Source: an uncultured Nitrososphaerota archaeon
GTDB lineage: Archaea; Thermoproteota; Nitrososphaeria; Nitrososphaerales; Gagatemarchaeaceae
DNA length: 64,000 nt
NCBI GenBank assembly: GCA_963838925.1
Contig: CAWISW010000002.1
Coordinates: forward strand, 320,001-384,000
Direction of reading: 5' to 3'
Shown: one piece after another, positions 16,125 through 27,862 of the stretch
Layout of the letters: each line of letters opens with the position of its first letter
Numbering within the stretch: the first letter of the stretch is position 1
Notes under the pieces: generated by a model
What the model saw: only the letters and a program-made list of their open reading frames with translations
Told to the model about the DNA's origin: nothing
The model's database searches: none
Translations under genes and position numbers: made by a program

Positions 16125-17615
16125 TCAGAACCCAGCGGGCGCACCGTCGCCCCTGACGTCGCACACGGCCTTCTTGCCTGCGGGCGTGAGCTCGATGCCC
16201 TGTGCCACCCCTTGCCTGTAGGGATAGTCGACGACTCGCACTCCTGGGACCTCTCCTTCGACCCTGTACCCCCTCTCGACCAGTGTCTCCTCCCCGTCCC
16301 ACACGAACCTGGGGTAACTCAACGCTTCCTCCACTCCCATCGAGTAGTCGACAACGTTGGAGACGAAGAGGGCGTGCAGCTGGGGGCGATGCTCGCCTCC
16401 GCTCGTCCCCATCGCGACGTAGGGCCTCTCGTCCTTCGCCCTCGACAGCAGCAGGGCGGACAAGGTGTGGACCGGCCTCTTCCTCGGGGCAAGGCTGTTG
16501 GGACCCTCCAGCTTGAACGCAGACGCCCTGTTGTTCAAGAAGAAGCCCGAGTCCTTGAGGTAGACCCTCGAGCCGAATGGGTGAAAGAGGCTCTGAATGC
16601 ATGAGAGCAGGTTCCCCTCCTCGTCGGCGACCGCGAAGTAGGTCGTGTCCCCGTCGGGCACCCCTGAGGCGCGCCGGCCCGGCCTCGAGCCAAGGAACCC
16701 CTGGAGGTCGAAGCCCACGAACCTGGGGTCGCCGATGAGCTCGTCCTTCGCCGCGAGGGCCACCATGGTCGCCTCTGTGGTGCGCGTCACCCGCTCCAAC
16801 GAGTCCGCCGGAGGCGGCTTGGACTCCTCGAGCTGCTTGAGGATCAGGAGCGCCGCGGCCCCCATGCTGTTGGGCGGGACCTCGTAGACCCTCTGCCCTC
16901 GGTACTCCATGCTGATCGGCTCCACCCACTCTGGGGCGAACGACAGGTCGTCCCGGTCGACCTCGACACCCTCCGCGCCTAGCGTCTCCACGATCTCGTC
17001 TGCCGCCGCGCCTCGATAGAACGCCTCGGCACCGCCCTCTCCTATCTCCCGTATGCGCTCGGCCAGCCCTCTCTGGCGCAGCAACTCCCCCGGCTCGGGC
17101 CCTAGGCCGTCCGCTCCGAGAGCGCGGAGCGCGTCTCGGGGGAGGTCGCCCCGATACCTTCCCAGGGCCCTCGACAACCCAGGCGAGATTGGAAACCCGT
17201 CCTCTGCGAGCTCGATGGCCCTCTCGAGGAGGCGGGAGAACTCGACCCGCCCGAACCTGCTGTGGAGCTCCTCGACGCCGCCCACCATCCCCGGGACGAC
17301 CACGCTGCCGGCACCGAACAGGGGGACCTTGGCGAGCCCTTGGGAGCGGACGGACTCGACCGTCGCCCCTGACGGCGCCCAGCCGCTCCCGTTCAGGCAG
17401 CGGACCGCGCCGCTCCTCCTGTCGAAGAACAGGGCGAAGAAGTCGCCCCCCAGGCCGTTCATGTGGGGAAGCACGACCGAGAGGGCGAAGCTCGCAGCGA
17501 CCGCCGCGTCGAAGGCGTTCCCGCCTGCTCGCATGACTTCCGACCCTGCCAAAGATGCGAGGGGGTGCTCCGTCGCGACCGAGCAGTCCTTGGAGACGAG
17601 CACCTTGGCAGACAA
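16125..17615 (-). CDS. ggt: Gamma-glutamyltransferase family protein
   Basis: GGNAFDAAVA, GLGGDFF, PPNSMG, DTTYF (Thr nucleophile), PRKRPVHTL; TTG at 17615 chosen from TATA position. Confidence 0.93.
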   Translation of the reverse strand: MSAKVLVSKDCSVATEHPLASLAGSEVMRAGGNAFDAAVAASFALSVVLPHMNGLGGDFFALFFDRRSGAVRCLNGSGWAPSGATVESVRSQGLAKVPLFGAGSVVVPGMVGGVEELHSRFGRVEFSRLLERAIELAEDGFPISPGLSRALGRYRGDLPRDALRALGADGLGPEPGELLRQRGLAERIREIGEGGAEAFYRGAAADEIVETLGAEGVEVDRDDLSFAPEWVEPISMEYRGQRVYEVPPNSMGAAALLILKQLEESKPPPADSLERVTRTTEATMVALAAKDELIGDPRFVGFDLQGFLGSRPGRRASGVPDGDTTYFAVADEEGNLLSCIQSLFHPFGSRVYLKDSGFFLNNRASAFKLEGPNSLAPRKRPVHTLSALLLSRAKDERPYVAMGTSGGEHRPQLHALFVSNVVDYSMGVEEALSYPRFVWDGEETLVERGYRVEGEVPGVRVVDYPYRQGVAQGIELTPAGKKAVCDVRGDGAPAGF

Positions 17616-17700
17616 TGCCGACGACAACGGCGGCGGACGCCGGGTGATAAAAGTCCGCGGCGGCATCAAGATATATCGCAGGGACGGCGCCGGTCGCATC

Positions 17701-18588
17701 ATGGCGAAGAACCTCAGGATCGGCTTCATCGGGCTCGGGATAATGGGCAGGCCAATGGCTCAGAACCTGCTCAAAGCGGGCTTCGAGCTCACCGTGTACA
17801 ACAGGAGCAAGCCCCCCGTCGAGCTCCTCGTCTCCTCCGGCGCCGTCTCCGCCCCGTCCCCCAAGGAAGTCGCCGAGCGCAGCGACGTCGTAGTAACGAT
17901 GGTGACGGACTCCGAAGCGGTGAAGGAAGTCGTCCTCGGACAGGGCGGCGTCATCGAAGGCGCGCACCCGGGCCTGGTCCTGGTGGACATGAGCACGATC
18001 TCCCCCAGCGTCACTCGGAACGTCTCGGCATCCTTGGCTGCCAAGGGGACGGCCATGCTCGACGCGCCAGTCAGCGGAGGGGACACGGGCGCGAGGGAGG
18101 GGACGCTGACCATAATGGTGGGAGGTCCTGCCCCCGCCTTCGAGGCCTGCCTCCCCGTCCTCCAAGCGATGGGAAGGAAGGTCGTTCACATGGGAGACAC
18201 CGGCGCGGGCCAGCTGACCAAGCTGGCCAACCAGATCCTGGTGGCCTGCAACATGGTCGGAGTAAGCGAGTGCCTAAACTTCGCCAAGAAGGCGGGCCTC
18301 GACGTCGGGAAGGTGATCGACTCCCTCTCGGCCGGGGCCGCCTCATCATGGAGCCTCGTCAATCTGGGGCCGAGGATAGTCAAGCGCGACTTTTCCCCGG
18401 GCTTCAAGATCAAACTCCTCCAGAAGGACCTGCGGTACGTCCTAGCCGCTGCTGACGACATCAACGCGCCCCTGCCCGCCACCGCGCTCGTCCACAAGCT
18501 GTACGGGCAGCTCGAGGAGAAAGGCCTCGGCGACGTCGGGACCCAGGCACTCATCACCGCCATCGAGCAGATGTCGAGCCAAGGCTGA
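17701..18588 (+). CDS. Beta-hydroxyacid dehydrogenase (2-hydroxy-3-oxopropionate reductase / 3-hydroxyisobutyrate dehydrogenase family)
   Basis: IGFIGLGIMGRPMA, DMSTISP, LDAPVSGG, KLANQ; ATG at 17701 (ORF track over-extends). Confidence 0.95.
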   Translation: MAKNLRIGFIGLGIMGRPMAQNLLKAGFELTVYNRSKPPVELLVSSGAVSAPSPKEVAERSDVVVTMVTDSEAVKEVVLGQGGVIEGAHPGLVLVDMSTISPSVTRNVSASLAAKGTAMLDAPVSGGDTGAREGTLTIMVGGPAPAFEACLPVLQAMGRKVVHMGDTGAGQLTKLANQILVACNMVGVSECLNFAKKAGLDVGKVIDSLSAGAASSWSLVNLGPRIVKRDFSPGFKIKLLQKDLRYVLAAADDINAPLPATALVHKLYGQLEEKGLGDVGTQALITAIEQMSSQG

Positions 18589-18773: not shown

Positions 18774-18882
18774 CCCCTGAGCCGGCGGCCCGTGCCGCTC
18801 TTCACGCTCGCTCGTTGAGAGATTAATGAGCATAGGAATATCCAAACCCGAATAACTTATAAGATATGAATATCGCGCAGGC

Positions 18883-19950
18883 TTGCTTGGCGAAGCTTTT
18901 ACCCTCTGCCTCAGGGTGCGCGTGGAGTTGACAGAGTACCGCGTTTCACTGACGGGTCTTCACGCAAGGAACGAGAAGACCATCCAGGCCACCCAGGACT
19001 GGGAGAGGAGCAGGATAAACGAGGCTGCGTTGAAAGCCTGCTTCGACAAGGACTGCGACTCCCTGGTCGAGCTACAGAAGCGGGTGGGTGCCGAATACAT
19101 CACCGACGGGCAGATCACGCTTGCGTGGCAGGACCTCTTCAGGCCGATCAGCTCGGGGTTCGAAGGGCTCGAGCCAGGTCCCATGGTGAGGTGGTTCAAC
19201 ACGAACACCTTCTTCTACGCGCCTATAGTGAAGGGAGCGATCTCGAGCGACGGCAAGGTACTCTCGAGGGCCATCGAGAAGAGGTTCGTCAACCACGGCT
19301 CCGCACTGAAGATAGTGCTGCCTGACCCGCTCACATTCGCGGAGCTGGCCGAGGACAGATTCTACGGCAGCAAGGAGAAGCTCCTCTTCGCTTACACGGA
19401 CGCCATAAGGGGGGAGCTGCGGACCCTGTCAAAGGTAGGTGTGAAGTACGTCCAGTTCTCCGCCCCGAGCCTCGTCTACAGGCTGAAGCAGAAGCCCTTC
19501 TCGCGCGCAGGGCTCAGGCAGCTGGGCGAGGCGGTAAGGAACGCGCTCAAGGGGGTCTCTCTGAGGAGCGGCTTCTACCCGCTCTTTGGGGACGCGTCTC
19601 CCTACCTGCCAGAGCTCCTCGACGTCATTCCCACGGACGACATCGGCATCGACCTGACGCAGACGGACGACTCCTCGCTGTCAGCGACGAGCAAGGGGAT
19701 CATCGCCGGGATAGTCGACTCCCGGACCACCTACCTCGAGGACGTGGCGTCGCTCGCCTCTCGCGTCGAGAGGGTCGCCGACAGGACCGCCGCCAGCACG
19801 CTCACGCTCGCCCCTTCCGCCGACCTCAGGTACATCCCCCGGGTCAGCGCGGACGAGAAGCTCGAGCTCCTCGGCAGACTGAGGTCTCGGGTAAAGAGGG
19901 GACGCGAGACGCCCAGCGCGCCGAAACCAGCGAGGAGGGGAGCGAAGTGA
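18883..19950 (+). CDS. Split cobalamin-independent methionine synthase, N-terminal (non-catalytic, folate-binding) half
   Basis: YITDGQ..WQDLFRP, VRWFNTNTFF, GIVDSR; no Zn ligands; true start probably about 18916-18928. Confidence 0.85.
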   Translation: MLGEAFTLCLRVRVELTEYRVSLTGLHARNEKTIQATQDWERSRINEAALKACFDKDCDSLVELQKRVGAEYITDGQITLAWQDLFRPISSGFEGLEPGPMVRWFNTNTFFYAPIVKGAISSDGKVLSRAIEKRFVNHGSALKIVLPDPLTFAELAEDRFYGSKEKLLFAYTDAIRGELRTLSKVGVKYVQFSAPSLVYRLKQKPFSRAGLRQLGEAVRNALKGVSLRSGFYPLFGDASPYLPELLDVIPTDDIGIDLTQTDDSSLSATSKGIIAGIVDSRTTYLEDVASLASRVERVADRTAASTLTLAPSADLRYIPRVSADEKLELLGRLRSRVKRGRETPSAPKPARRGAK

Positions 19951-21140
19951 AGGCCTTCCCCACCCAGGAGATAGGGAGCCTCCCGAAGTTCTCGTGGAGG
20001 ACCAAGCCGTTCAGGCAGATGGCGCTCACGGACGACGACCTCGAGTCCGCGAGAGTGTGGGGAGACCGCCTCAAGGTCGACGGACGGAACGACCTCCACC
20101 GGCTGCTCTCCAAGCGCTATGCCTTCACCGACGAGGAGAAGAAGCGCATAGTCGACTTCTCACTCCTGTACGCGATCAGGATGTGCGAGACAGCCGGGCA
20201 CGGCCTCGCCAAGGAACCGGGGCTCGACCTGGTTTGGAGCGGCGAGCAGGCGAGGACCGAGATGTACGAGACGCCCGTCTCCAACATCGCGGGCTTCGAG
20301 TTCGTGGGGAGGGTGAGGAGCTTCGACAACAAGTACTGGAGGATGGCCTCAATCCGGTCCGCTCCAAAGTACAAGGAGAACTACCACCTCGACGAGCTCC
20401 TGTTCACCGAGGAGAACGCCGAGCGCAAGGTCAAAGTCCCCGTCACCGACGCCATCACGATAATGGCGTGGTCGGACAACAACTACTACACGGGCAAGTG
20501 GGCGGACAAGTCCGGGCTCTCGCCTTCGAAGAGGAGCTTCAGCGCCAGGCGCGAGTTCACCCTCGAGCTGGCCAAGATAATCCGGAGGGTCATCAGGGAG
20601 CTGATCGAGAAGGGGGTCGAGGAGGTGCAGATCGACATACCCGCCGCGACACAGTACCAGTCCGACGACGACATCAAGCTCGTCGCCGAGTCGTTCAACG
20701 AGACGACGAAGGGGCTGGACGCCACTTTCAGCGTCCACAGCTGCTTCCCACCCAGCATCGGCTATGGCATCCTCTTCCCCCACCTCCTCGAGATGAAGAA
20801 GTGCGAGCGCTTCTCCCTCGAGTACGGCAACCGTGACACCTTCGAGAAGGGTCTGGACGCCAAGTCCAGGACCGGCTTCGAGGACCTCAAGCTCTTCAAG
20901 GAGTACGGCTACAAGAGGCAGCTGGGCGTCGGGGTCATCCACATACACACCGACACCCTGCCAAGCGTCGAGGTGGTGCGAGACCGCATCCTCTACTCTG
21001 CGAAGGTCACGGACCTCCCGCCGGAGAACCTCTACGTCAACCCGGACTGCGGCCTTCGCACGAGGCGCCCAGAGATAGCCCAGAAGATGCTCGACCTGGT
21101 GGTCGGCGGCGCCGAGCTCGCGAGGGGCAAGTCCGGATGA
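19947..21140 (+). CDS. metE: Cobalamin-independent methionine synthase, catalytic half
   Basis: FPTQEIGSLPK, VRSFDNKYW, VQIDIPA, HSC, SLEY, VNPDCGLRTR Zn ligands. Confidence 0.92.
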   Translation: MKAFPTQEIGSLPKFSWRTKPFRQMALTDDDLESARVWGDRLKVDGRNDLHRLLSKRYAFTDEEKKRIVDFSLLYAIRMCETAGHGLAKEPGLDLVWSGEQARTEMYETPVSNIAGFEFVGRVRSFDNKYWRMASIRSAPKYKENYHLDELLFTEENAERKVKVPVTDAITIMAWSDNNYYTGKWADKSGLSPSKRSFSARREFTLELAKIIRRVIRELIEKGVEEVQIDIPAATQYQSDDDIKLVAESFNETTKGLDATFSVHSCFPPSIGYGILFPHLLEMKKCERFSLEYGNRDTFEKGLDAKSRTGFEDLKLFKEYGYKRQLGVGVIHIHTDTLPSVEVVRDRILYSAKVTDLPPENLYVNPDCGLRTRRPEIAQKMLDLVVGGAELARGKSG

Positions 21141-22387
21141 TCCCACGGGTCACGACCATAGGGAGCTACCCGACGTTCCCACGGGCGGAGGACGTCGAGT
21201 ACTACTACACCATCTCGAGGCACGGCCTCGGCGGGGAGGTTGTCGACCCCTACCTCTGGTCGATGGAGGAGGCGCTCAAGGACTTCACGTCCGCGGGCGT
21301 GGACGTGCCGTCGACGGGCCAGTCCAGGGGCGACCTTTACTCGCTCTTCTTGGAGCCGAAGTTCGTCAAGGGGATAACGTGGCAGGGAGCCGACGCCTAC
21401 GTCAACGGGAAGATCGAGCGGACCGGCTCGATCCGCCTGGCGGACGTCCGCCACGCGAGGAGCGTCCTCCCCCCCCACTACGAGCTGAAGGAGCCGATAA
21501 CAGACGCCTACACTCTCGCCAGGTTCGCCAAGATCAACACCAGCAGCTACGCTGACACCAGGGAGCTCGCGCGAGAGATAAACAAGAAGATCATCATACC
21601 GGAGATCGAGGACCTCCAGGCGAGCGGGGCGGTCTCCTGGCTCCAGCTCGACTCGCCCACCATCGCCGCCGAGTCCTCCACCCCTGACTACATCCAAGGG
21701 CTCTACGAGGAGGTCGCGGCCGCCGCGAAGGTCCCCGTAGTCGTGCACGCTTGCGGGGACGCGGTGAGGATCTTCTCCTCCCTGCTCACGAAGCTGAAGG
21801 TCGACACGATCTCGCTCGACTTTTACCACTACCCCAAGCTCTTCGAGGAGGCGGGCAAGAAGAGCTACGACCAGAAGATAGGGCTGGGCTGCACCGACAG
21901 CCAGAGCATGAGGGTCGAGACCGTGGACGAGACCAGGCGGCTGATAGCCTTCGCGGAGGCGCGCCTCGGCAAGGACCGGATCCAGTTCGTCCACCCTCAC
22001 TGCGGCCAGAGGAACCTGAACCGCGAGATAGCCTACGAGAAGAACGTGGTGCTCGCGTTGGCGCGGGACGACGCGTGCTTCGGGGAGGCGGAGGAGGCCT
22101 CGGCCTCCCACCTCACCTCCAAGGAGTACGACCCGGGCGGCTACTTCCTCGTCTCGGTGAGCAGGGAGACGAAGGAGATAGTGGTCGCCTACTACACCTA
22201 CGACCACACGGCGAAGAAGAGGTACCGCTCCAAGTCAGCGGAGCGCCTCTTCCAGACCCTCAACGACGAGGCCGACACCCTCGGCCTGAGCCGCAGGCAC
22301 CTCTCGTACCTCACGCTGGAGCTCGGACGCGCGGAGGCGTCGATCGCCTCTGGGACCCAGTCCTACCGCCAGAAAGTGATAGAGTGA
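21137..22387 (+). CDS. Second MetE-like catalytic core fused to a C-terminal DUF4346-like domain
   Basis: TTIGSYP, STGQSRGD, LQLDSP, HACG, HPHCGQRNL; C-terminal DPGGYFLV...HLSYLTLELGRAE...YRQ. Confidence 0.85.
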   Translation: MIPRVTTIGSYPTFPRAEDVEYYYTISRHGLGGEVVDPYLWSMEEALKDFTSAGVDVPSTGQSRGDLYSLFLEPKFVKGITWQGADAYVNGKIERTGSIRLADVRHARSVLPPHYELKEPITDAYTLARFAKINTSSYADTRELAREINKKIIIPEIEDLQASGAVSWLQLDSPTIAAESSTPDYIQGLYEEVAAAAKVPVVVHACGDAVRIFSSLLTKLKVDTISLDFYHYPKLFEEAGKKSYDQKIGLGCTDSQSMRVETVDETRRLIAFAEARLGKDRIQFVHPHCGQRNLNREIAYEKNVVLALARDDACFGEAEEASASHLTSKEYDPGGYFLVSVSRETKEIVVAYYTYDHTAKKRYRSKSAERLFQTLNDEADTLGLSRRHLSYLTLELGRAEASIASGTQSYRQKVIE

Positions 22388-23263
22388 TTGAGGCTAGCGG
22401 AGCGCCTTAAGAGGGGCATCTTCACCACCGTCGTCGAGATCTTCCCGCCCAACTTCAGCGCCGAGACGGCCAAGGAGCCGCTCCTGGGCCTGAGGCAGAA
22501 GACGCAGGACGTCGTCTCGAGGGTGAGGAAGGTCGAGAACCTCGTGGACTGCTTCGTCGTCGCTGACATGAAGGACCTCGGGAGGCTGAAGCTGTCCAGC
22601 ATCTACACCGCGGCCATGCTGAAGCATGAGCTCGACACGGAAGTAATCCCCGTCATAGCTGTGAGGGACGCCAACCGGTCTGGGGTAAGGACCCTCTTCC
22701 TCACCGCCCTCTCGTACGGGCTCGACTCCGTGATGCTGGTCTGGGGGGACAAGTACAACGAGGGAGAGGGCTCCGCCAACGTCTACGACTACCCTTCGCT
22801 CTCTGATGCGATCAAGGAGATGAGGGCGCTCGCGGACAGGGCGAACGTCGAAGCCACCATCCTCGCCCCGGTCAACGTGGCCGCGCTGGAGACGAAGAGG
22901 GGCGCCGCGATAGCGTCGTCCCGCCTCGAGAGCGGGGCGGACTGCCTTCTCGCCCAGCCGCCAACGTCCGACATCTCGGTCACGCTGCCGGAGCACCTCC
23001 GCCTCCTCGACGGGAAGGGCATGAGGCCGAACGTCCTGCTCAACGTCTTCCCGTTCAGGGACAAGGAGGACATCGACTCCTGCAGGGCCCGGTTCGGCTG
23101 GAAGATACCCGACGTGGCGGACAGGATCGCCCAAGAAGGCGGGGAGGCCGGCCTGATCAGGGAATCCAAGATGGTCGTGGAGAAGATGCGGGAGAGCGGG
23201 CTCCCCGGGGTATACGTATCGACGAGGGGCAGGCCGGAGCTCGCGCGGTTCATCCTCGACTAG
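22388..23263 (+). CDS. metF: Methylenetetrahydrofolate reductase-like flavoprotein
   Basis: VVEIFPP, VIPVIAVRDANR, LVWGD, GADCLLAQP; adjacent to the metE genes. Confidence 0.8.
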   Translation: MRLAERLKRGIFTTVVEIFPPNFSAETAKEPLLGLRQKTQDVVSRVRKVENLVDCFVVADMKDLGRLKLSSIYTAAMLKHELDTEVIPVIAVRDANRSGVRTLFLTALSYGLDSVMLVWGDKYNEGEGSANVYDYPSLSDAIKEMRALADRANVEATILAPVNVAALETKRGAAIASSRLESGADCLLAQPPTSDISVTLPEHLRLLDGKGMRPNVLLNVFPFRDKEDIDSCRARFGWKIPDVADRIAQEGGEAGLIRESKMVVEKMRESGLPGVYVSTRGRPELARFILD

Positions 23264-23321: not shown

Positions 23322-24035
23322 TTGAAGGCCCTCATTCTCGCGGGCGGGCAGGGTCTGAGGCTGAGACCGCTCACCGACGACAGGCCCAAGCCCCTCGTCG
23401 CGGTCGCGGGGAAGCCGATAGCGGAGTGGCAGCTCGACTGGATGATCAAGAACGTCGACCTCCGAGATGCGACCTTCCTCTGCGGCTACAAGTGGACGCG
23501 CCTGAAGGAGCACTTCGGCAGCGAGTACCGCGGCGTGCGGATCGAATACAGCGTGGAAGAGACGCCGCTCGGGACCGGCGGGGCGTTCCGAAAGGCCATC
23601 GAGGGCGCGAAGATCGGCGACGAGGACGTACTGATGATGAACGGCGACATCGTCACCGACCTCCCGCTGGGCGATATGGTCGCCGCGCACACCTCGGCGA
23701 AGAGCCGCCCGACGATAACGCTCCTCCTAGTGCCCTACAGGTCGAGGTTCGGGATCGTCCACATCGACAAACAGAACGTCGTGAAGGGCTTCGAGGAGAA
23801 GCCCGAGTTCAAGGACGTCTGGATCAACGGGGGAATCTACGTCGCCAACGCGAAGAGGCTCGTGGGCAGCCTTCCGGCGAAGGGGGACGTCGAGAGGGAG
23901 ACGTTCCCGAGGCTCGTCCGCACCGGCGAGATACTCGCGTATCCATACCGCGGTTTCTGGTCGCTCATCGACTCCGTCAAGGACATCCAGGAGGTCGAGA
24001 AGGAGCTCAAGGCCCGCGCAGCGGCGACCTCCTGA
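23322..24035 (+). CDS. Sugar-phosphate nucleotidyltransferase
   Basis: KALILAGGQGLRLRPLTDDRPKPL, PLGTGG, NGDI, FEEKP. Confidence 0.95.
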   Translation: MKALILAGGQGLRLRPLTDDRPKPLVAVAGKPIAEWQLDWMIKNVDLRDATFLCGYKWTRLKEHFGSEYRGVRIEYSVEETPLGTGGAFRKAIEGAKIGDEDVLMMNGDIVTDLPLGDMVAAHTSAKSRPTITLLLVPYRSRFGIVHIDKQNVVKGFEEKPEFKDVWINGGIYVANAKRLVGSLPAKGDVERETFPRLVRTGEILAYPYRGFWSLIDSVKDIQEVEKELKARAAATS

Positions 24036-24123
24036 CCGCCGATCGCCCGACTCCTCGCTTCAGCTTCGAAATGCTTATTATGTGAAGGTGGAGTGCGTGC
24101 TTTGGTAAGGGTCGATAGATTCC

Positions 24124-25224
24124 TTGCCACAAAGTTTTGTCACCAAACTGAAGGACGCATCTCAAGCTTACACCTTCCGCGACTTTATCCTGCTCCCAGG
24201 GAGGAGCGAAGTCGAGCCCAGGGACATCGACCTCTCCTCGAACCTCACGAAGCACATCAAGCTCAGCCTCCCCTTCGTCTCCTCGCCCATGGACACGGTC
24301 ACCGAGTGGAGGATGGCAGTCGAGCTCGCGAGGATTGGCGCCGCGGGCGCTATCCACAGGAACATGAGCACCGAGAGCCAGGTCGAGCAGGTGAAGAAGG
24401 CGAAGGCGGCCAAGGTCCAGGCGAAGTCCGTCGACGAGAAGGGCAGGCCGCTGGTGGGGGCCTCGGTCTCGCCTCTCGACACGAAGCGCTGCGAGGCGCT
24501 GGACAGGGTCGCCGACTTCCTGGTCTCAGACGTCGCCCACTTCCACAACTCAAACCTGCTGAAGGTGACCGCGAGGCTCCTTCCCAACCTGAGCAAGGAC
24601 TTCATCGCGGGCAACATCGGCACGAAACGGGCGGTCCGCGACATCATCACGGAGCTGCCGCGCGTAGACGGGTTCAGGGTGGGCATAGGCTCGGGCTCCG
24701 TCTGCATCACCTCGGAGGTGACGAGGGTGGGGGCGCCGACCCTCTTCGCGGTCTCGGAGGTGGCGACGGCCGTCAGCGAACTCAACGCCGACGTCCCGAT
24801 AATCGCGGACGGCGGGATCCGCGGCGCGGGCGACGCGTCCCTCGCGCTGGCTGCGGGGGCATCCACCGTGATGCTCGGCTCGATGCTCGCCGGCTGCGAC
24901 GAGTCGCCCACGAAGGTGATCGTAAAGAACGGCAAGAAGATGAAGGTCCACAGGGGGATGGCCAGCGCCGCGGCCCGGAACGTGCGCTTCGCCCTCGACA
25001 GGTACAGCGTTCCCGCCAAGGGGCTCGAGGAGGGCGTGGAGGCCTACGTCGCGTACTCTGGCAAGACCGCGGACGTCATCGCGAAGGTCGAGAACGGGCT
25101 GAAGGCGTCGTTCGGGTACTCCGGCGCGAAGAGCGTGAGCGACCTCTGGAGCGTCGCCTCCTTCGGCTACGTCTCTCCCCAGGGCACCTCCGAGCTCGGA
25201 GTCCACTCTCTTACCCTGAAGTGA
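24124..25224 (+). CDS. guaB: IMP dehydrogenase lacking the CBS subdomain
   Basis: SSPMDTVTE, IHRNM, VGIGSGSVCIT, IIADGGI, RGMAS, DRY, EGVE. Confidence 0.93.
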   Translation: MPQSFVTKLKDASQAYTFRDFILLPGRSEVEPRDIDLSSNLTKHIKLSLPFVSSPMDTVTEWRMAVELARIGAAGAIHRNMSTESQVEQVKKAKAAKVQAKSVDEKGRPLVGASVSPLDTKRCEALDRVADFLVSDVAHFHNSNLLKVTARLLPNLSKDFIAGNIGTKRAVRDIITELPRVDGFRVGIGSGSVCITSEVTRVGAPTLFAVSEVATAVSELNADVPIIADGGIRGAGDASLALAAGASTVMLGSMLAGCDESPTKVIVKNGKKMKVHRGMASAAARNVRFALDRYSVPAKGLEEGVEAYVAYSGKTADVIAKVENGLKASFGYSGAKSVSDLWSVASFGYVSPQGTSELGVHSLTLK

Positions 25225-25230
25225 GAGTGC

Positions 25231-26862
25231 TTGCGCGCTTCGAGCATGACCGAGACAAAGACAAGAAACCCCGCGAGCACGCCCGGAAAGGCGAAAGGTG
25301 AGGGTGCCAGGAGGGACCTGCAGCTCCTCCGCGGAGGCGTCGCAGTCCTCGACTTTGGGGGCCAGTACTCACACCTCATCGCCAGGAGGATAAGGGGCCT
25401 GGGGGTGTACGCGGCCCTCCTTCCCTTCGACACCTCGGCGAGCTCGCTGAAGGAGATGGGAGTGAAGGGCGTCGTCCTATCGGGAGGCCCCTCGAGCGTC
25501 TACGGTCCCGGGGCCCCGCATCCGGACAAGGCGATATTCTCGGGGGACGTCCCGTTGCTCGGCATCTGCTACGGCTACCAACTCCTCGTCCAGGCGCACG
25601 GCGGCGAGGTGAAACGGGTGCCGAAGAGGGAATACGGCAAGGCCAAGGTGAAGATAACAGACCGCGGGAGCATCTTCAACGGGATAAGCAGTGACAGCAT
25701 CACCTGCTGGATGAGCCACGGCGACTCCGCGACCAAGCTCCCGCCCGGACTCGCAGCGATGGCCACAAGCGACAACTCGCCATATGCCGCGATCCGAACC
25801 GCCGACGGCCGGCAGTTCGGAGTCCAGTTCCACCCCGAGGTGGTCCACACGGAGCACGGCGGCGAGATCCTCTCGAACTTCGTGTTCGGCGTCTGCCGCG
25901 CGGAGCGCAGGTGGAGCATGGAGGGGTTCCTAGGGGAGACTCTCCGCGAGCTGCGGCAGACACCAGAGGGCAGGGTGCTGTGCGCAGTCTCGGGCGGGGT
26001 GGACTCCTCGGTCGCCTCCGTCCTCCTCAACAAGGCGCTCCACGAGAGGCTGCAGTGCGTCTTCATCGACACGGGCCTGCTGAGGGAGGGGGAGGGAGCC
26101 GAAGTCTCCAAGTTCCTCAAGCACGACCTCGGGGTCCCTCTCGAGTTCATCGACGCGTCGACGAGGTTCCTGAGCGCGCTGAAGGGGGTCTCCGACCCCG
26201 AGAAGAAGAGGAAGATCATCGGGAGGGTATTCGCTGAGGAGTTCGAGGAGTACGCGAGGAAGAAGGGGCCGTTCAGGTACCTGGCCCAGGGCACGCTCTA
26301 TCCAGACGTGATCGAGAGCGGCCAGACCAACGCCCCCGCCTCCGTCATAAAGACCCACCACAACGTCGGCGGTCTCCCCAAGGACCTGAGGATGGAGCTC
26401 ATCGAGCCGCTGCGAGAGCTCTACAAGGACGAGGTGAGGGCGCTGGGCTCGCTCCTCGGGCTGCCACCGGAGGTCCTGAAGCGCCACCCCTTCCCCGGCC
26501 CGGGGCTCGCCGTCAGGATAATCGGGGAGGTCACCCCGGAGAAGGTGCGCATGTGCAGGGGCGCCAACCTCATCGTCGAGGAGGTCATGCGCGAGGAGGG
26601 GCTCTACGACAAGGTCTGGCAGGCGTTCGCCTACCTGGGGGACGACCACGTCACCGGGGTGCTGGGGGACGAGCGCAGGGTCGGCGCACAGGTCACCGTG
26701 CGTGCCGTCGAGTCGGTCGACGCCATGACCGCAGACTGGTACCGCATGCCCTACGACGTCATGGAGAGGATCTCGAGCAGGATAACAAACGAGGTTGACG
26801 GGGTCGTGAGCGTGGCCTACTCCATCTCCTCGAAGCCTCCGGCCACGATCGAGCCCCAGTGA
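25231..26862 (+). CDS. guaA: GMP synthase (fused GATase + ATPPase)
   Basis: LDFGGQYSHLIARR, LGICYG, QFHPEV, SGGVDS, IKTHHNVGG, KPPATIEPQ; start uncertain. Confidence 0.97.
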   Translation: MRASSMTETKTRNPASTPGKAKGEGARRDLQLLRGGVAVLDFGGQYSHLIARRIRGLGVYAALLPFDTSASSLKEMGVKGVVLSGGPSSVYGPGAPHPDKAIFSGDVPLLGICYGYQLLVQAHGGEVKRVPKREYGKAKVKITDRGSIFNGISSDSITCWMSHGDSATKLPPGLAAMATSDNSPYAAIRTADGRQFGVQFHPEVVHTEHGGEILSNFVFGVCRAERRWSMEGFLGETLRELRQTPEGRVLCAVSGGVDSSVASVLLNKALHERLQCVFIDTGLLREGEGAEVSKFLKHDLGVPLEFIDASTRFLSALKGVSDPEKKRKIIGRVFAEEFEEYARKKGPFRYLAQGTLYPDVIESGQTNAPASVIKTHHNVGGLPKDLRMELIEPLRELYKDEVRALGSLLGLPPEVLKRHPFPGPGLAVRIIGEVTPEKVRMCRGANLIVEEVMREEGLYDKVWQAFAYLGDDHVTGVLGDERRVGAQVTVRAVESVDAMTADWYRMPYDVMERISSRITNEVDGVVSVAYSISSKPPATIEPQ

Positions 26863-26875
26863 GCGCTGATCGAAG

Positions 26876-27862
26876 ATGCCCGTGTTCCTAGGCCCGCAGA
26901 CAGCCCTCGCGGAGCTCCACGTCCACCTGGGGAGCTCGGTCGACCCGGCCGTGATGTGGGAGATAGCCCACGCCCAGGGCATCCGACTTCCGACGAAGGA
27001 CTACTGGCGGTTCGTGGACATGATCACGGTCAACCCCAGGAAGGTGAAGTCGTTCGAGGACTACCTCGCGCTCTTCCACTGGACCGAGCTCATCCAGTCC
27101 AGCCCCCTCGCGATCGAGAACTCGGTCTATCACACCATAGCCGGGGCCTACCGCAAGAACAACATCACCCTCATAGAGCTGAGGTTCAACCCGATGAAGA
27201 GGAACCGCGGAGGGGAGAGGGACCTCGACCAGATCATGATGGCCGCGGGGCGGGGGCTCGACAGGGCGTCTGCGGAGTACCCCGTCAAGAGCGGCATAAT
27301 CATCTGCCTGGACAGGACCTTCGACCAGCACCTGAACGAGATCCTCCTCGAGAAGGCCCTGAAGTACAAGAACAGGGGCGTGGTCGGCATCGACATCGCC
27401 GGGTCGGCCAGGAAGGGCTTCCGCTACTCGGACTGCAAGGGCCTCTACAGGAGGGCGCGCAAGGAGGGGCTGGGCCTGACGGTCCACGCAGGGGAGGACG
27501 AGGGCCACAACTCCGTGCGAGACGTCCTGGCGCACCTGGAGCCCCAGAGGATAGGCCACGGGGTGAGGGCCACGGAGGACGCCGAGACACTGGAGATGCT
27601 GCGCGAGAGGGGTGTCACCCTCGAGCTCTGCCCCTCGTCCAACCTCAACACGCGCGTCCTGAAGGGCGTGGGGGACATGAAGCGGGTCTTCAGGGAGCTG
27701 AACAGGAGCAAGGTGAAGTACACGATCAACACCGACGGCCCCGAGATGCTCCTGACCAACCTGAGGAACGAGATAGACTTCCTACTCAGGAACGGCATCC
27801 TCAAGGAGAGCGACGTGCTCCGCGCCAACAGGAACGCTTTCGCGGCTTCCTTCATCCAGTAG
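26876..27862 (+). CDS. Adenosine/AMP deaminase family protein
   Basis: ELHVHL, IELRFNP, TVHAGE, RIGHG, ELCPSSN, NTDGP. Confidence 0.92.
   Translation: MPVFLGPQTALAELHVHLGSSVDPAVMWEIAHAQGIRLPTKDYWRFVDMITVNPRKVKSFEDYLALFHWTELIQSSPLAIENSVYHTIAGAYRKNNITLIELRFNPMKRNRGGERDLDQIMMAAGRGLDRASAEYPVKSGIIICLDRTFDQHLNEILLEKALKYKNRGVVGIDIAGSARKGFRYSDCKGLYRRARKEGLGLTVHAGEDEGHNSVRDVLAHLEPQRIGHGVRATEDAETLEMLRERGVTLELCPSSNLNTRVLKGVGDMKRVFRELNRSKVKYTINTDGPEMLLTNLRNEIDFLLRNGILKESDVLRANRNAFAASFIQ

Follow-up and report, generated by a model that had tools for sequence, protein, structure and literature searches.

A four-gene archaeal operon with a split MetE pair, a predicted MesA-like core fused to DUF4346, and an MTHFR-like gene

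Operon layout and the split MetE pair

The window analyzed here is a 64,000-nucleotide stretch of DNA from an uncultured archaeon of the family Gagatemarchaeaceae. Its open reading frame list contains four tightly joined frames, g1 to g4, which span positions 18883-23263 of the + strand. An earlier note had read them as the overlapping or abutting genes of a methionine operon, and its coordinates and junctions were exact. The g1 stop overlaps the g2 start by 4 bases (GTGA, 19947-19950), g2 and g3 are joined at ATGA (21137-21140), and g4 begins with TTG right after the TGA of g3 (22385-22390). The start of g1 is uncertain: there are in-frame GTG, GTG, and TTG codons at 18916, 18922, and 18928, and the alignment of distant g1 homologues begins only near residue 15. 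Upstream of g1, an AT-rich, TATA-like stretch at 18850..18865 on the + strand (aataacttataagatatg, read by eye from the sequence) is tentatively a possible archaeal promoter. Scanning all of the window with Rfam at gathering thresholds returned no match, and the operon is therefore not preceded by any known riboswitch. Of four RNA contigs compared, a 254-base one from an RNA library is identical to g2 at 20840-21093, and the other three were short, partial, and less alike. These are assembled contigs and not raw reads; the match is no evidence of an operon transcript, and missing coverage of g3 and g4 carries no meaning.

The order g1-g2-g3-g4 was found in 30 of 33 loci from related genomes, and the other three loci end at contig edges. 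Therefore, the four-gene arrangement is not due to chance, and the operon proposed from the window alone is conserved across related genomes. Pfam and NCBIfam also supported its proposed content of a split MetE pair, a third catalytic MetE-like barrel, and a MetF-like gene.

g1 (18883..19950, + strand, 355 aa) is a homologue of the MetE N-terminal half and a putative pterin-tail-binding subunit of a split MetE. It matched Meth_synt_1 at 51.8 bits (cut-off, 27) and Meth_synt_2 at 15.7 bits, and its PRK08575- and PRK04326-type NCBIfam matches were under their cut-offs. It carries an invariant R103-W104-x-x-T107-N108 motif. Its sequence has no H-x-C and no C-terminal Cys zinc ligand, in agreement with the zinc-less N-half that had been claimed. 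g2 (19947..21140, + strand, 397 aa) is a classical MetE-type catalytic barrel, the predicted catalytic subunit of a split MetE. It matched Meth_synt_2 at 79.7 bits, PRK01207 at 208 bits, and PRK04326 at 201 bits, the latter two under the NCBI equivalog cut-offs, and T. maritima MetE at 2.3e-16. Measured against the E. coli MetE barrel (zinc, H641, C643, E665, and C726; homocysteine, S433, E484, and D599), g2 keeps all seven residues. Its zinc ligands (H264-x-C266, E292, and C368), also as claimed, are invariant, as are S11, E100, and D230. None of the proteins approached the cut-off for full-length MetE (TIGR01371, 929.95 bits): g1 scored 51.5, g2 scored 85.2, and g3 scored 32 bits.

As set out in Price et al. 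(2021; PMC7857596), the folate component of a split MetE has at most 400 aa and matches Meth_synt_1 better than Meth_synt_2 and above the Pfam cut-off. The length and scores of g1 fall within these limits. The catalytic component given there has at most 400 aa and a score of 200 bits or more to Pyrococcus PF1269, for which PRK04326 and PRK01207 served as our proxies. Finally, the two components are adjacent, and g1 and g2 are neighbors in the window and in the same 30 loci.

The last gene, g4 (22388..23263, + strand, 291 aa), encodes a divergent methylene-tetrahydrofolate reductase (MTHFR)-like protein. It scored 21.2 bits to PF02219, under the 24-bit gathering cut-off, and 41.3 bits to PRK08645. 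Operon-linked counterparts that are 27-28% identical to g4 pass PF02219 (39.8 bits in locus L050 and 46.9 bits in L051). The nearest ESM Atlas cluster is from MTHFR-bearing Nitrososphaerota (score, 0.93), and 38% of its members carry MTHFR. Against solved structures, a single-sequence search with g4 returned no match and a profile search returned one chance-level match. Apart from g4, no MTHFR-like gene was found in the window's genome, which has FolD and two copies of SHMT.

The core barrel and the DUF4346 domain of g3

g3 occupies 21137-22387 on the + strand and encodes 416 aa. Its barrel (21137..22096, + strand) is a predicted MesA-like core homocysteine methyltransferase domain, which matched Meth_synt_2 at 71.9 bits over residues 6-301 and T. 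maritima MetE at 5e-18 in Foldseek. The best NCBIfam model was PRK00957 (136.5 bits; cut-off, 258). We used this model as a proxy for MesA, for which the threshold in Price et al. (2021) is at least 174 bits to the characterized enzyme METE_METTM. The HACG (H204-A-C206-G) and HCG (H288-C289-G) motifs that the earlier note picked out are invariant in 39/39 homologues. Q62 is likewise invariant in all 39; D172, D228, and H286 are invariant too, and S10 is nearly so. Compared with MetE, g3 keeps H204, C206, C289, S10, and D172 and has Asp228 for Glu665 and Gln62 for Glu484. This Gln was present in 25/25 fused proteins and in 41 of the 43 proteins with PRK00957 as best model, whereas g2 (7/7), g2b (3/3), and MetE have Glu. 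MesA and MesC have Gln at this position, as described in PMC7857596.

It had also been suggested that the acceptor could be a thiol other than homocysteine. We disfavor this because the three homocysteine-binding residues (S10, Q62, and D172) are all present. Most likely, g3 acts as a second homocysteine methyltransferase, predicted to be fed, like g2, by the MTHFR-like g4. The same residues count against a broader alternative, in which g3 is a zinc-thiol methyltransferase with another donor (e.g., a sulfonium such as S-methylmethionine or SAM) or acceptor, serving salvage or detoxification rather than de novo methionine synthesis. Redundancy with g1 plus g2 would suggest a distinct job of this kind, as would the clade-specific invariants (D228 where MetE has its zinc-ligand Glu, and two His residues, H286 and H288, flanking the zinc Cys), and alternative donors are proposed in PMC10861871 for other core MetE-like fusions. 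However, the operon contains no transporter or sulfonium-metabolism gene. The fused core also keeps its link to MTHFR in all lineages examined apart from L060, and this link points to a pterin as the source of the methyl group. We regard this alternative as quite improbable.

g2 and g3 have rare substitutions in common at positions equivalent to T. maritima T531-G532-P533 and V469. In MetE, the T531-G532-P533 loop links the folate site to the homocysteine site and, as described in PMC539065, sets the folate-stacking Trp539. Among 37 operons, the g2/g3 loops were TDA/TDA in 30, TDP/TDP in 2, TGP/TDP in 4, and TGP/TGP in 1. Recent gene conversion was considered as the origin of the common T-D-A loop and rejected: the DNA segments are identical at 36/72 positions and use different synonymous codons. 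At the Trp539 position itself, 7/7 g2-clade members have Trp. The residue is Phe in 8/8 g3-clade proteins, compared with Ser, Asn, or Thr in fused forms linked to MtrA and MtrH. Other fused proteins that are linked to g1-g2 have nonaromatic Asn, Gly, or Glu (P0100, P0102, P0104, L064, and L072). The co-varying loop substitutions are the sole pointer to an arrangement in which two cores might use one common folate-binding subunit. Complex prediction for g1 with g3, run without controls, gave scores of 0.01, 0.45, and 0.29, where the threshold is 0.32; these speak neither for nor against binding.

Could g3 be a catalytically idle relic of a lost corrinoid cassette (see below)? A complete split MetE lies alongside it, and searches for MtrA and MtrH, its partners in the ancestral cassette, found neither. 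However, most loci have an intact, full-length g3 reading frame, and the gene is kept in 21/22 other genomes of the genus. Across 39 homologues with 52-96% identity there are 75 invariant columns, which include all zinc and substrate positions, and g3 co-varies with g2. A relic is therefore a very slim prospect.

The C-terminal part of g3 (22130..22372, + strand; residues 332-412) matched PF14251 (PterinBD-DUF4346) at 50 bits (gathering cut-off, 29.6). In a scan of the whole genome it scored 53.2 bits and was the sole PF14251 match. This domain had been overlooked in the first reading of the window. AlphaFold2 models the domain as three strands and then two helices (pLDDT, 83.9). By tblastn, the domain matched the DUF4346 of TIGR00284 dihydropteroate synthase-like proteins (E = 8e-9; 32% identity over 90 residues). 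DUF4346 also lies within a 390-position NCBIfam model named MtrA (PRK00964.1-6), which g3 matched weakly. A Foldseek search of the PDB with the domain model found nothing at an E value of 0.001 or less, the best VIA-align wide hits (Z, 6.7) were ribosomal PSRP-3-type chains inside the noise range of the tool, and the ESM Atlas gave no usable match for this part. An MtrA-like corrinoid fold was considered for DUF4346 because of the weak match to the MtrA-named model, but with a model of three strands plus two helices and no informative match in Foldseek or VIA-align, we assigned the domain no fold. The literature searched contained no paper on DUF4346 or PF14251.

Relatives of g3 and the corrinoid question

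We built a phylogeny of 125 rows. g2 clustered with the MetE C-terminal half and PRK04326 proteins (SH-aLRT, 97), whereas g3 and every fused protein fell inside a PRK00957 (MesA-like) superclade (SH-aLRT, 98). This placement outside MetE and split MetE, together with the Gln at the Glu484 position, bears out the proposal that the third protein is of the core type. The protein P0109 has the source label "Nanoarchaeota archaeon."

The g1-g4 order also occurs in distant versions of the operon (L050, L052, L024/L025, L064, L065, and L072); in L071 the contig stops ahead of g4. Identities in the distant operons were 28-40% for g1 and g2, 39-60% for g3, and 28-53% for g4. In L024/L025, g3 and g4 remain 59-60% and 51-53% identical, while g1 and g2 are only 29-32% identical. 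L051 has only g3 and g4 adjacent, with two more Meth_synt_2 genes at other places in the genome. g1-g2 and g3-g4 each behave as a module with its own inheritance.

Five metagenome loci of the fused lineage from outside the Nitrososphaeria were scanned. In all five, MtrA-like and MtrH-like genes lie upstream of the core and DUF4346, and MTHFR adjoins the core and DUF4346 in four. Loci of this kind, with or without MTHFR, are a corrinoid-relay cassette. These relatives were overlooked in the first reading, and they give the system a known ancestry. PMC11378808 mentions proximity of MesA and MtrA "in a few genomes." In the window operon, the genes directly upstream of the core are g1 and g2 rather than MtrA-like and MtrH-like genes, so that the split MetE pair sits at the MtrA-MtrH position. 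Because MTHFR also adjoins the core in MtrA-MtrH cassettes, its adjacency alone is no sign of direct pterin use.

These relatives raise the possibility that g3 is still a corrinoid-dependent MesA-type synthase, which would take its methyl group from a free methylcobamide or from an unrecognized corrinoid protein, which DUF4346 may hold. In that case, the B12-independent g1 and g2 would be combined with a B12-dependent g3, much as E. coli has MetE and MetH, and the retention of two synthases would be accounted for. The position of g3 in the MesA-like superclade, its Gln as in MesA and MesC, the MtrA and MtrH genes ahead of the closest other fused lineages, and the presence of DUF4346 in the MtrA-named model are all in its favor. 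B12-binding domains are also widespread in the lineage, being found in 88/96 other genomes of the family and in 22/22 of the genus.

However, searches for the partners of such an enzyme came back empty. MtrA (PF04208) was found in 0/97 family genomes, although the same search was positive in the 2 methanogen genomes used as a control. MtrH was found in 0/5 operon-bearing genomes, and neither MtrA nor MtrH was found in the window's own genome. That genome also has no Pterin_bind methyltransferase; therefore, nothing was seen that would re-methylate a corrinoid from methyl-pterin. CobS and a PF02310 B12-binding domain were not found in it either; it is 87% complete, and the missing B12-binding domain is therefore probably an assembly gap. 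An early conclusion that the organism has no corrinoid metabolism, drawn from the missing PF02310 and CobS, was dropped in view of the other family genomes. The DUF4346 model has no match to the MtrA corrinoid-binding fold, a missing match being weak evidence. Furthermore, MesA, MesB, and MesC are reported in PMC7857596 only from strict anaerobes, whereas the Gagatemarchaeaceae, to which a relative with a 75% identical g3 belongs (L012), are reported in PMC10640624 to be aerobic. The main text of the latter paper does not mention methionine, cobalamin, B12, or folate. On balance, we consider a corrinoid-dependent g3 somewhat unlikely.

A two-module methionine unit and its comparison with known systems

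Our preferred reading, which we hold tentatively and with slightly less than even confidence, is that the operon is a two-module methionine unit, in which a split MetE (g1 and g2) stands beside a MesA-lineage core-DUF4346 protein and its MTHFR-like partner (g3 and g4), with g3 likely using methyl-pterin directly. The first module is a predicted cobalamin-independent split MetE, made of a zinc-less N-half and a zinc- and homocysteine-binding barrel that keeps the classical folate determinants. The second would be a core homocysteine S-methyltransferase with DUF4346, translationally abutted to g4. It would descend from the MtrA-like/MtrH-like/core/DUF4346/MTHFR corrinoid relay that survives in other archaea; in the probably aerobic lineage of the window, the MtrA-MtrH pair would have gone and the split MetE pair taken its place. 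g4 would reduce methylene-pterin supplied by SHMT and FolD to methyl-pterin, and g2 (with g1) and g3 would both methylate homocysteine. g3 would most likely receive the methyl group from methyl-pterin directly, through DUF4346, g1, or both, and not from a corrinoid protein.

Several observations run against this direct pterin route. Characterized MesA takes methylcobalamin and not methyl-tetrahydrofolate in vitro, as quoted in PMC11378808, and g3 has the MesA-type Gln. g3 would duplicate g1 and g2, yet both are kept everywhere. The Trp539 position is nonaromatic in the other fused proteins linked to g1-g2, and corrinoid enzymes are present in the lineage. The bolder claim that a MesA-type core has been rewired to corrinoid-free use of methyl-pterin, with DUF4346 as a cofactor-binding or docking module that acts alone or with g1, is in our view unlikely. 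Elsewhere, DUF4346 is found joined to pterin-binding and MtrA-like proteins.

If the rewiring were real, the operon would add a third architecture to those for making methionine without B12 and would be a natural record of how a corrinoid relay was replaced on adopting life with oxygen. What supplies core methionine synthases with methyl groups in vivo has been in question ever since MesA proved able to use methylcobalamin in vitro, although its Km is high. The operon offers a way to probe what feeds these enzymes, by comparing core, DUF4346, and MTHFR with an MtrA-MtrH relay in some archaea and with a split MetE here. The split MetE version, which is without MtrA and MtrH, occurs in abundant Nitrososphaeria of acidic soil and peat, and it bears on predicting the B12 dependence of soil archaea. 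The literature searched contained no description of a g3-type core-DUF4346 fusion or of the combination of genes that the earlier note had called undescribed.

Four known systems resemble parts of the operon. Archaeal split MetE of the Pyrococcus PF1268/PF1269 type, predicted by Price et al. (2021), likewise consists of adjacent genes for proteins of at most 400 aa, one best matching Meth_synt_1 and the other matching Meth_synt_2 and having every zinc, homocysteine, and folate-stacking residue. However, g1-g2 shares one tightly joined operon with a second core barrel and an MTHFR, and g2 is longer, has an insert at about residues 20-85, and falls under the NCBIfam equivalog cut-offs. MesA, the methylcobalamin:homocysteine methyltransferase ("core MetE") of methanogens described in PMC7857596, is, like g3, a single zinc barrel with no MetE N-half. 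The two have in common the Gln at the Glu484 position, the His-x-Cys and Cys zinc ligands, and, by the PRK00957 proxy, a tree superclade. g3 differs in its fused DUF4346, its Asp for the zinc-ligand Glu, and its subthreshold PRK00957 score. MesA is also defined as a methanogen protein with MtrA as the predicted donor, whereas the relatives of g3 are Nitrososphaeria, a nonmethanogen lineage with no MtrA detected, and g3 shares its operon with a split MetE. The archaeal TIGR00284 dihydropteroate synthase-like proteins (DUF6513, Pterin_bind, and DUF4346) have the same C-terminal DUF4346, but their catalytic part is a pterin-binding barrel, whereas that of g3 is a MetE-type barrel; PF14251 and Pterin_bind scans found no such protein in the window's genome. 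Finally, the MtrA-MtrH cassette of nonmethanogenic archaea has the same core and DUF4346, as fused or adjacent genes, and an adjacent MTHFR, and its core proteins fall in the same 36-row tree clade as g3. Where the cassette has a corrinoid protein and a methyl-pterin:corrinoid methyltransferase, the window has a MetE N-half and a MetE barrel.

Gene layout and the MetE- and MTHFR-like products

Four plus-strand ORFs occupy the place in the window where the earlier note had put a methionine operon: g1 (18883-19950, 355 amino acids [aa]), g2 (19947-21140, 397 aa), g3 (21137-22387, 416 aa), and g4 (22388-23263, 291 aa). Its description of the junctions was also borne out in the DNA, with GTGA at g1/g2, ATGA at g2/g3, and a TGA followed directly by TTG at g3/g4. 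The G+C content of the window is 61 to 68%, and a TATA-like AT-rich stretch lies approximately 20 to 30 bases 5' of g1. Further in, g1 has in-frame starts at 18916 (GTG), 18922 (GTG), and 18928 (TTG). Its homologues beyond approximately 75% identity can be aligned only from about residue 15. Therefore, the annotated TTG start may be too far upstream, and the true start may be one of the three between 18916 and 18928.

Upstream of the operon are a gamma-glutamyltranspeptidase gene on the minus strand (16125-17729) and a 3-hydroxyisobutyrate-dehydrogenase-like gene on the plus strand (17701-18588). A purine-interconversion cluster (23322-27862) follows on the operon strand, encoding an NTP transferase (23322-24035), IMP dehydrogenase (24124-25224), GMP synthase (25231-26862), and adenosine deaminase (26876-27862).

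The g1 product matches Meth_synt_1 (Pfam, 51.8 bits). A homologue alignment found no zinc ligands in g1, and it has an invariant R103-W104-x-x-T107-N108 motif, which corresponds to KWFDTN in the N-terminal barrel of MetE. The g2 product matches Meth_synt_2 (Pfam, 79.7 bits), T. maritima MetE (2.3e-16), and the NCBIfam models PRK01207 (208 bits) and PRK04326 (201 bits), both below cut-off. All classical MetE residues are kept in the g2 alignment, and diverged g2 versions in relatives (g2b) keep H-x-C, Glu, and Cys. By its sequence, g4 appears weakly MTHFR-like, with 21.2 bits to PF02219 (below the Pfam cut-off of 24) and 41.3 bits to PRK08645 (NCBIfam). The Atlas cluster closest to it is from Nitrososphaerota and bears MTHFR. 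A scan of the source genome (1.84 Mb, 87% complete) found g4 as its sole MTHFR-like match and only g1, g2, and g3 as MetE-like genes.

The g3 core, its DUF4346 domain, and a loop common to g2 and g3

Pfam assigns residues 6-301 of g3 to Meth_synt_2 and residues 332-412 to PF14251 (PterinBD-DUF4346). The top NCBIfam model is PRK00957 (136.5 bits; cut-off, 258), our proxy for the MesA-like single-barrel methionine synthases. An AlphaFold2 model of g3 (pLDDT, 87.6) matched T. maritima MetE at 5e-18 (Foldseek). Identity to g2 is only 24%. An exhaustive phmmer search of 1.84 billion representatives returned only 243 proteins at an E value of ≤0.001. Five further proteins in which a core is fused to PF14251 (P0100, P0102, P0104, P0109, and P0113) are 30 to 43% identical, and the closest unfused proteins are approximately 300 aa long with PRK00957 as top model.

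A phylogeny of these proteins, which the earlier note had proposed, put g2 on the MetE side and g3 inside a PRK00957 superclade. It was a quick IQ-TREE run on 125 hand-picked rows and 305 columns, drawn at its midpoint, with frame breaks in four metagenome rows read as X. The g2 and g2b proteins grouped with proteins of the PRK04326 type and with the C-terminal half of one full-length MetE (SH-aLRT, 97). The 13 fused proteins linked to g1-g2 form a single clade (SH-aLRT, 99) within a 36-row clade of all fused forms (SH-aLRT, 96), which in turn nests in the 88-row PRK00957 superclade (SH-aLRT, 98). In a site table, at the position of E. coli Glu484, Gln is present in 25/25 fused and 41/43 PRK00957-best proteins, and Glu in g2 (7/7), g2b (3/3), and MetE. 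Price et al. describe Gln here as a MesA/MesC signature (PMC7857596). The position of T. maritima Trp539, reported as the folate-stacking residue (PMC539065), is Trp in g2 (7/7), Phe in the main clade of g3 proteins of the window type (8/8), and mostly Ser, Asn, or Thr in other fused and PRK00957-type proteins.

The last zinc ligand of g3 lies in His-Pro-His-Cys (residues 286-289, window 21992-22003), which is invariant in the main clade; nearly all relatives have (Asn/Asp)-Pro-Asp-Cys there. The main clade also has Asp in place of the zinc-ligand Glu. Together, these replacements suggest a remodelled metal site.

In the 125-row alignment, we looked for columns at which main-clade g2 and g3 agree but less than 15% of the other rows do. 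There were eight, three of them consecutive. At the loop (I/V)-T531-G532-P533 of T. maritima MetE, the other rows have Gly in 100/102 and Pro in 98/102, and main-clade g2 and g3 both read P-(I/V)-T-D-A. In both, Tyr also replaces Val of the D-M-V turn. Thr531 is described as bonding to Met468 of this turn, thereby fixing the rotamer of Trp539 (PMC539065). Both genes were read in 37 distinct operons, with g2/g3 states of TDA/TDA in 30, TDP/TDP in 2, TGP/TDP in 4, and TGP/TGP in 1; loci L054 and L055 were left out as presumed duplicates of L030 and L025 because their contigs are equally long and their gene coordinates agree. The g2b proteins follow their own g3, with TDA in L024/L025 and, in the sister g2b of L050/L052, TDP. 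This co-variation fits a ligand or partner common to the g2 and g3 barrels. There were about two to three independent changes, and we therefore treat it as a lead rather than a test.

The two loop DNA segments of the window are identical at 36/72 positions and use different synonymous codons. Therefore, the T-D-A common to g2 and g3 does not stem from recent gene conversion.

The PF14251 domain of g3 is the only one in the source genome (1.84 Mb, 87% complete). Elsewhere in the phylum, PF14251 matched in 40 of 151 sampled genomes, mostly in frames of about 400 to 580 aa. The one such non-g3 protein examined for architecture (L038:205-1767) is a TIGR00284 "dihydropteroate synthase-like" protein with DUF6513, Pterin_bind, and DUF4346, and the g3 DUF4346 matches TIGR00284-type DUF4346 directly (E = 8e-9). 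Modelled alone, the domain has three strands and then two helices (pLDDT, 83.9); structure comparison of this model found no convincing solved relative. DUF4346 occurs with a pterin-binding barrel, with a MesA-like barrel, and in an MtrA-named model; it can also be a gene of its own. These partners suggest that it may be a cofactor-binding or docking module of one-carbon transfer complexes. The L038 protein also has weak matches to corrinoid/iron-sulfur methyltransferase models (PRK07535 and CdhD); a methyltransferase role, in place of or alongside a biosynthetic one, is possible for it.

Conservation and modularity of the operon

A word-indexed search with g3 found 99 proteins, nearly all of approximately 415 aa, whose named sources were all Nitrososphaerales, Nitrososphaerota, or Thaumarchaeota MAGs. 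Species-representative genomes yielded 33 loci, all in Nitrososphaeria-type MAGs. One of these is a Conexivisphaerales MAG, and in another, "Ca. Gagatemarchaeum stordalenia," g3 is 75% identical. Synteny was another check the earlier note had suggested: tblastn with the window's genes recovered the g1-g2-g3-g4 order in 30 of the 33, and the other three (L007, L011, and L037) are broken off by a contig end. Flanking neighbours differ in the more distant of these loci. The order persists in L050 and L052 at identities of 28 to 30% (g1), 29% (g2), 39 to 40% (g3), and 28 to 30% (g4). Metagenome loci L064, L065, and L072 retain all four genes, and L071 retains g1-g2-g3 as far as its contig end. The operon is modular, g1-g2 versus g3-g4. 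In L024/L025, g3 and g4 are 59 to 60% and 51 to 53% identical, whereas g1 and g2 fall to 29 to 32%. In L051, adjacency is limited to g3-g4, and the genome has a further two Meth_synt_2 genes at other places.

Matches to g3 occur in 39 of 97 family genomes (the source genome included) and in 21/22 other genomes of the genus. Among 301 evenly sampled genomes of the class, only 5 had an orthologue-level match. One sister genus has a g3-type gene in only 5/55 genomes, and most of its genomes lack any MetE-like match to the g3 query. This could reflect methionine auxotrophy or another synthase.

Methyl supply to g3 and comparison with known systems

Pfam scans of genes neighbouring the core in five non-Nitrososphaeria metagenome loci found MtrA and MtrH in 5/5 and MTHFR in 4/5. 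L056, L057, and L058 encode an MtrA-like protein (approximately 190 to 208 aa), an MtrH-like protein, a core fused to DUF4346, and then an adjoining MTHFR. L090 has MTHFR, MtrA, MtrH, and core, and L060 has MtrA, MtrH, and core; none of the ORFs scanned in L060 is an MTHFR. In both L090 and L060, DUF4346 has its own ORF, which overlaps the core gene at its end (L090:5863-6189 and L060:5902-6252). Therefore, DUF4346 can also serve as a subunit in its own right. The cassette corresponds to the three-component relay predicted for MesA, in which the methyl group passes from methyl-pterin through MtrH to a corrinoid on MtrA, and then by way of the core to homocysteine. According to Price and Arkin, MesA and MtrA are close together in a few genomes (PMC11378808).

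MtrA matched in none of the 97 family genomes, and the control matched in both methanogens. MtrH was found neither in five operon-bearing genomes nor in the source genome. We tentatively favor, at somewhat short of an even chance, a split MetE (g1 and g2) plus g3 as a second homocysteine methyltransferase, both using methyl-pterin made by g4. Here, g4 would draw on the SHMT/FolD pool, and g3, having lost MtrA and MtrH, would use the g4 product with help from DUF4346, g1, or both. The source genome does encode SHMT (two copies) and FolD. Even so, it shows no obvious route to the pterin carrier; at 87% completeness, neither a match to Pterin_bind/DHPS (PF00809) nor a DUF4346 protein of the TIGR00284 type was found in it.

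The main alternative is that g3 is still corrinoid dependent, so that the operon would pair B12-independent and B12-dependent routes. The source genome (87% complete) yielded neither CobS nor a PF02310 B12-binding domain. The lack of the latter is probably an assembly gap; B12-binding domains occur in 88/96 other family genomes and 22/22 other genomes of the genus, mostly in frames of approximately 150 and 630 aa. Therefore, the cell may contain corrinoids. Against this alternative, nothing was seen that could load a corrinoid, and we regard it as rather unlikely. That g3 uses another donor or acceptor seems improbable, and that it is a relic highly improbable. Gagatemarchaeaceae reportedly live as aerobic heterotrophs (PMC10640624), and the account of MesA, MesB, and MesC in PMC7857596 reports them from strict anaerobes only.

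In the main-text literature covered (few subscription journals), we found no description of the DUF4346 fusion to a core, of a fused core in an operon with split MetE in genomes without detected MtrA, or of the co-varying g2/g3 loop. Split MetE, MesA-like cores, MTHFR, and the MtrA-MesA link are each already known singly. Compared with the MtrA-MtrH cassettes, the operon in the window has g1-g2 in the slot of MtrA-MtrH.
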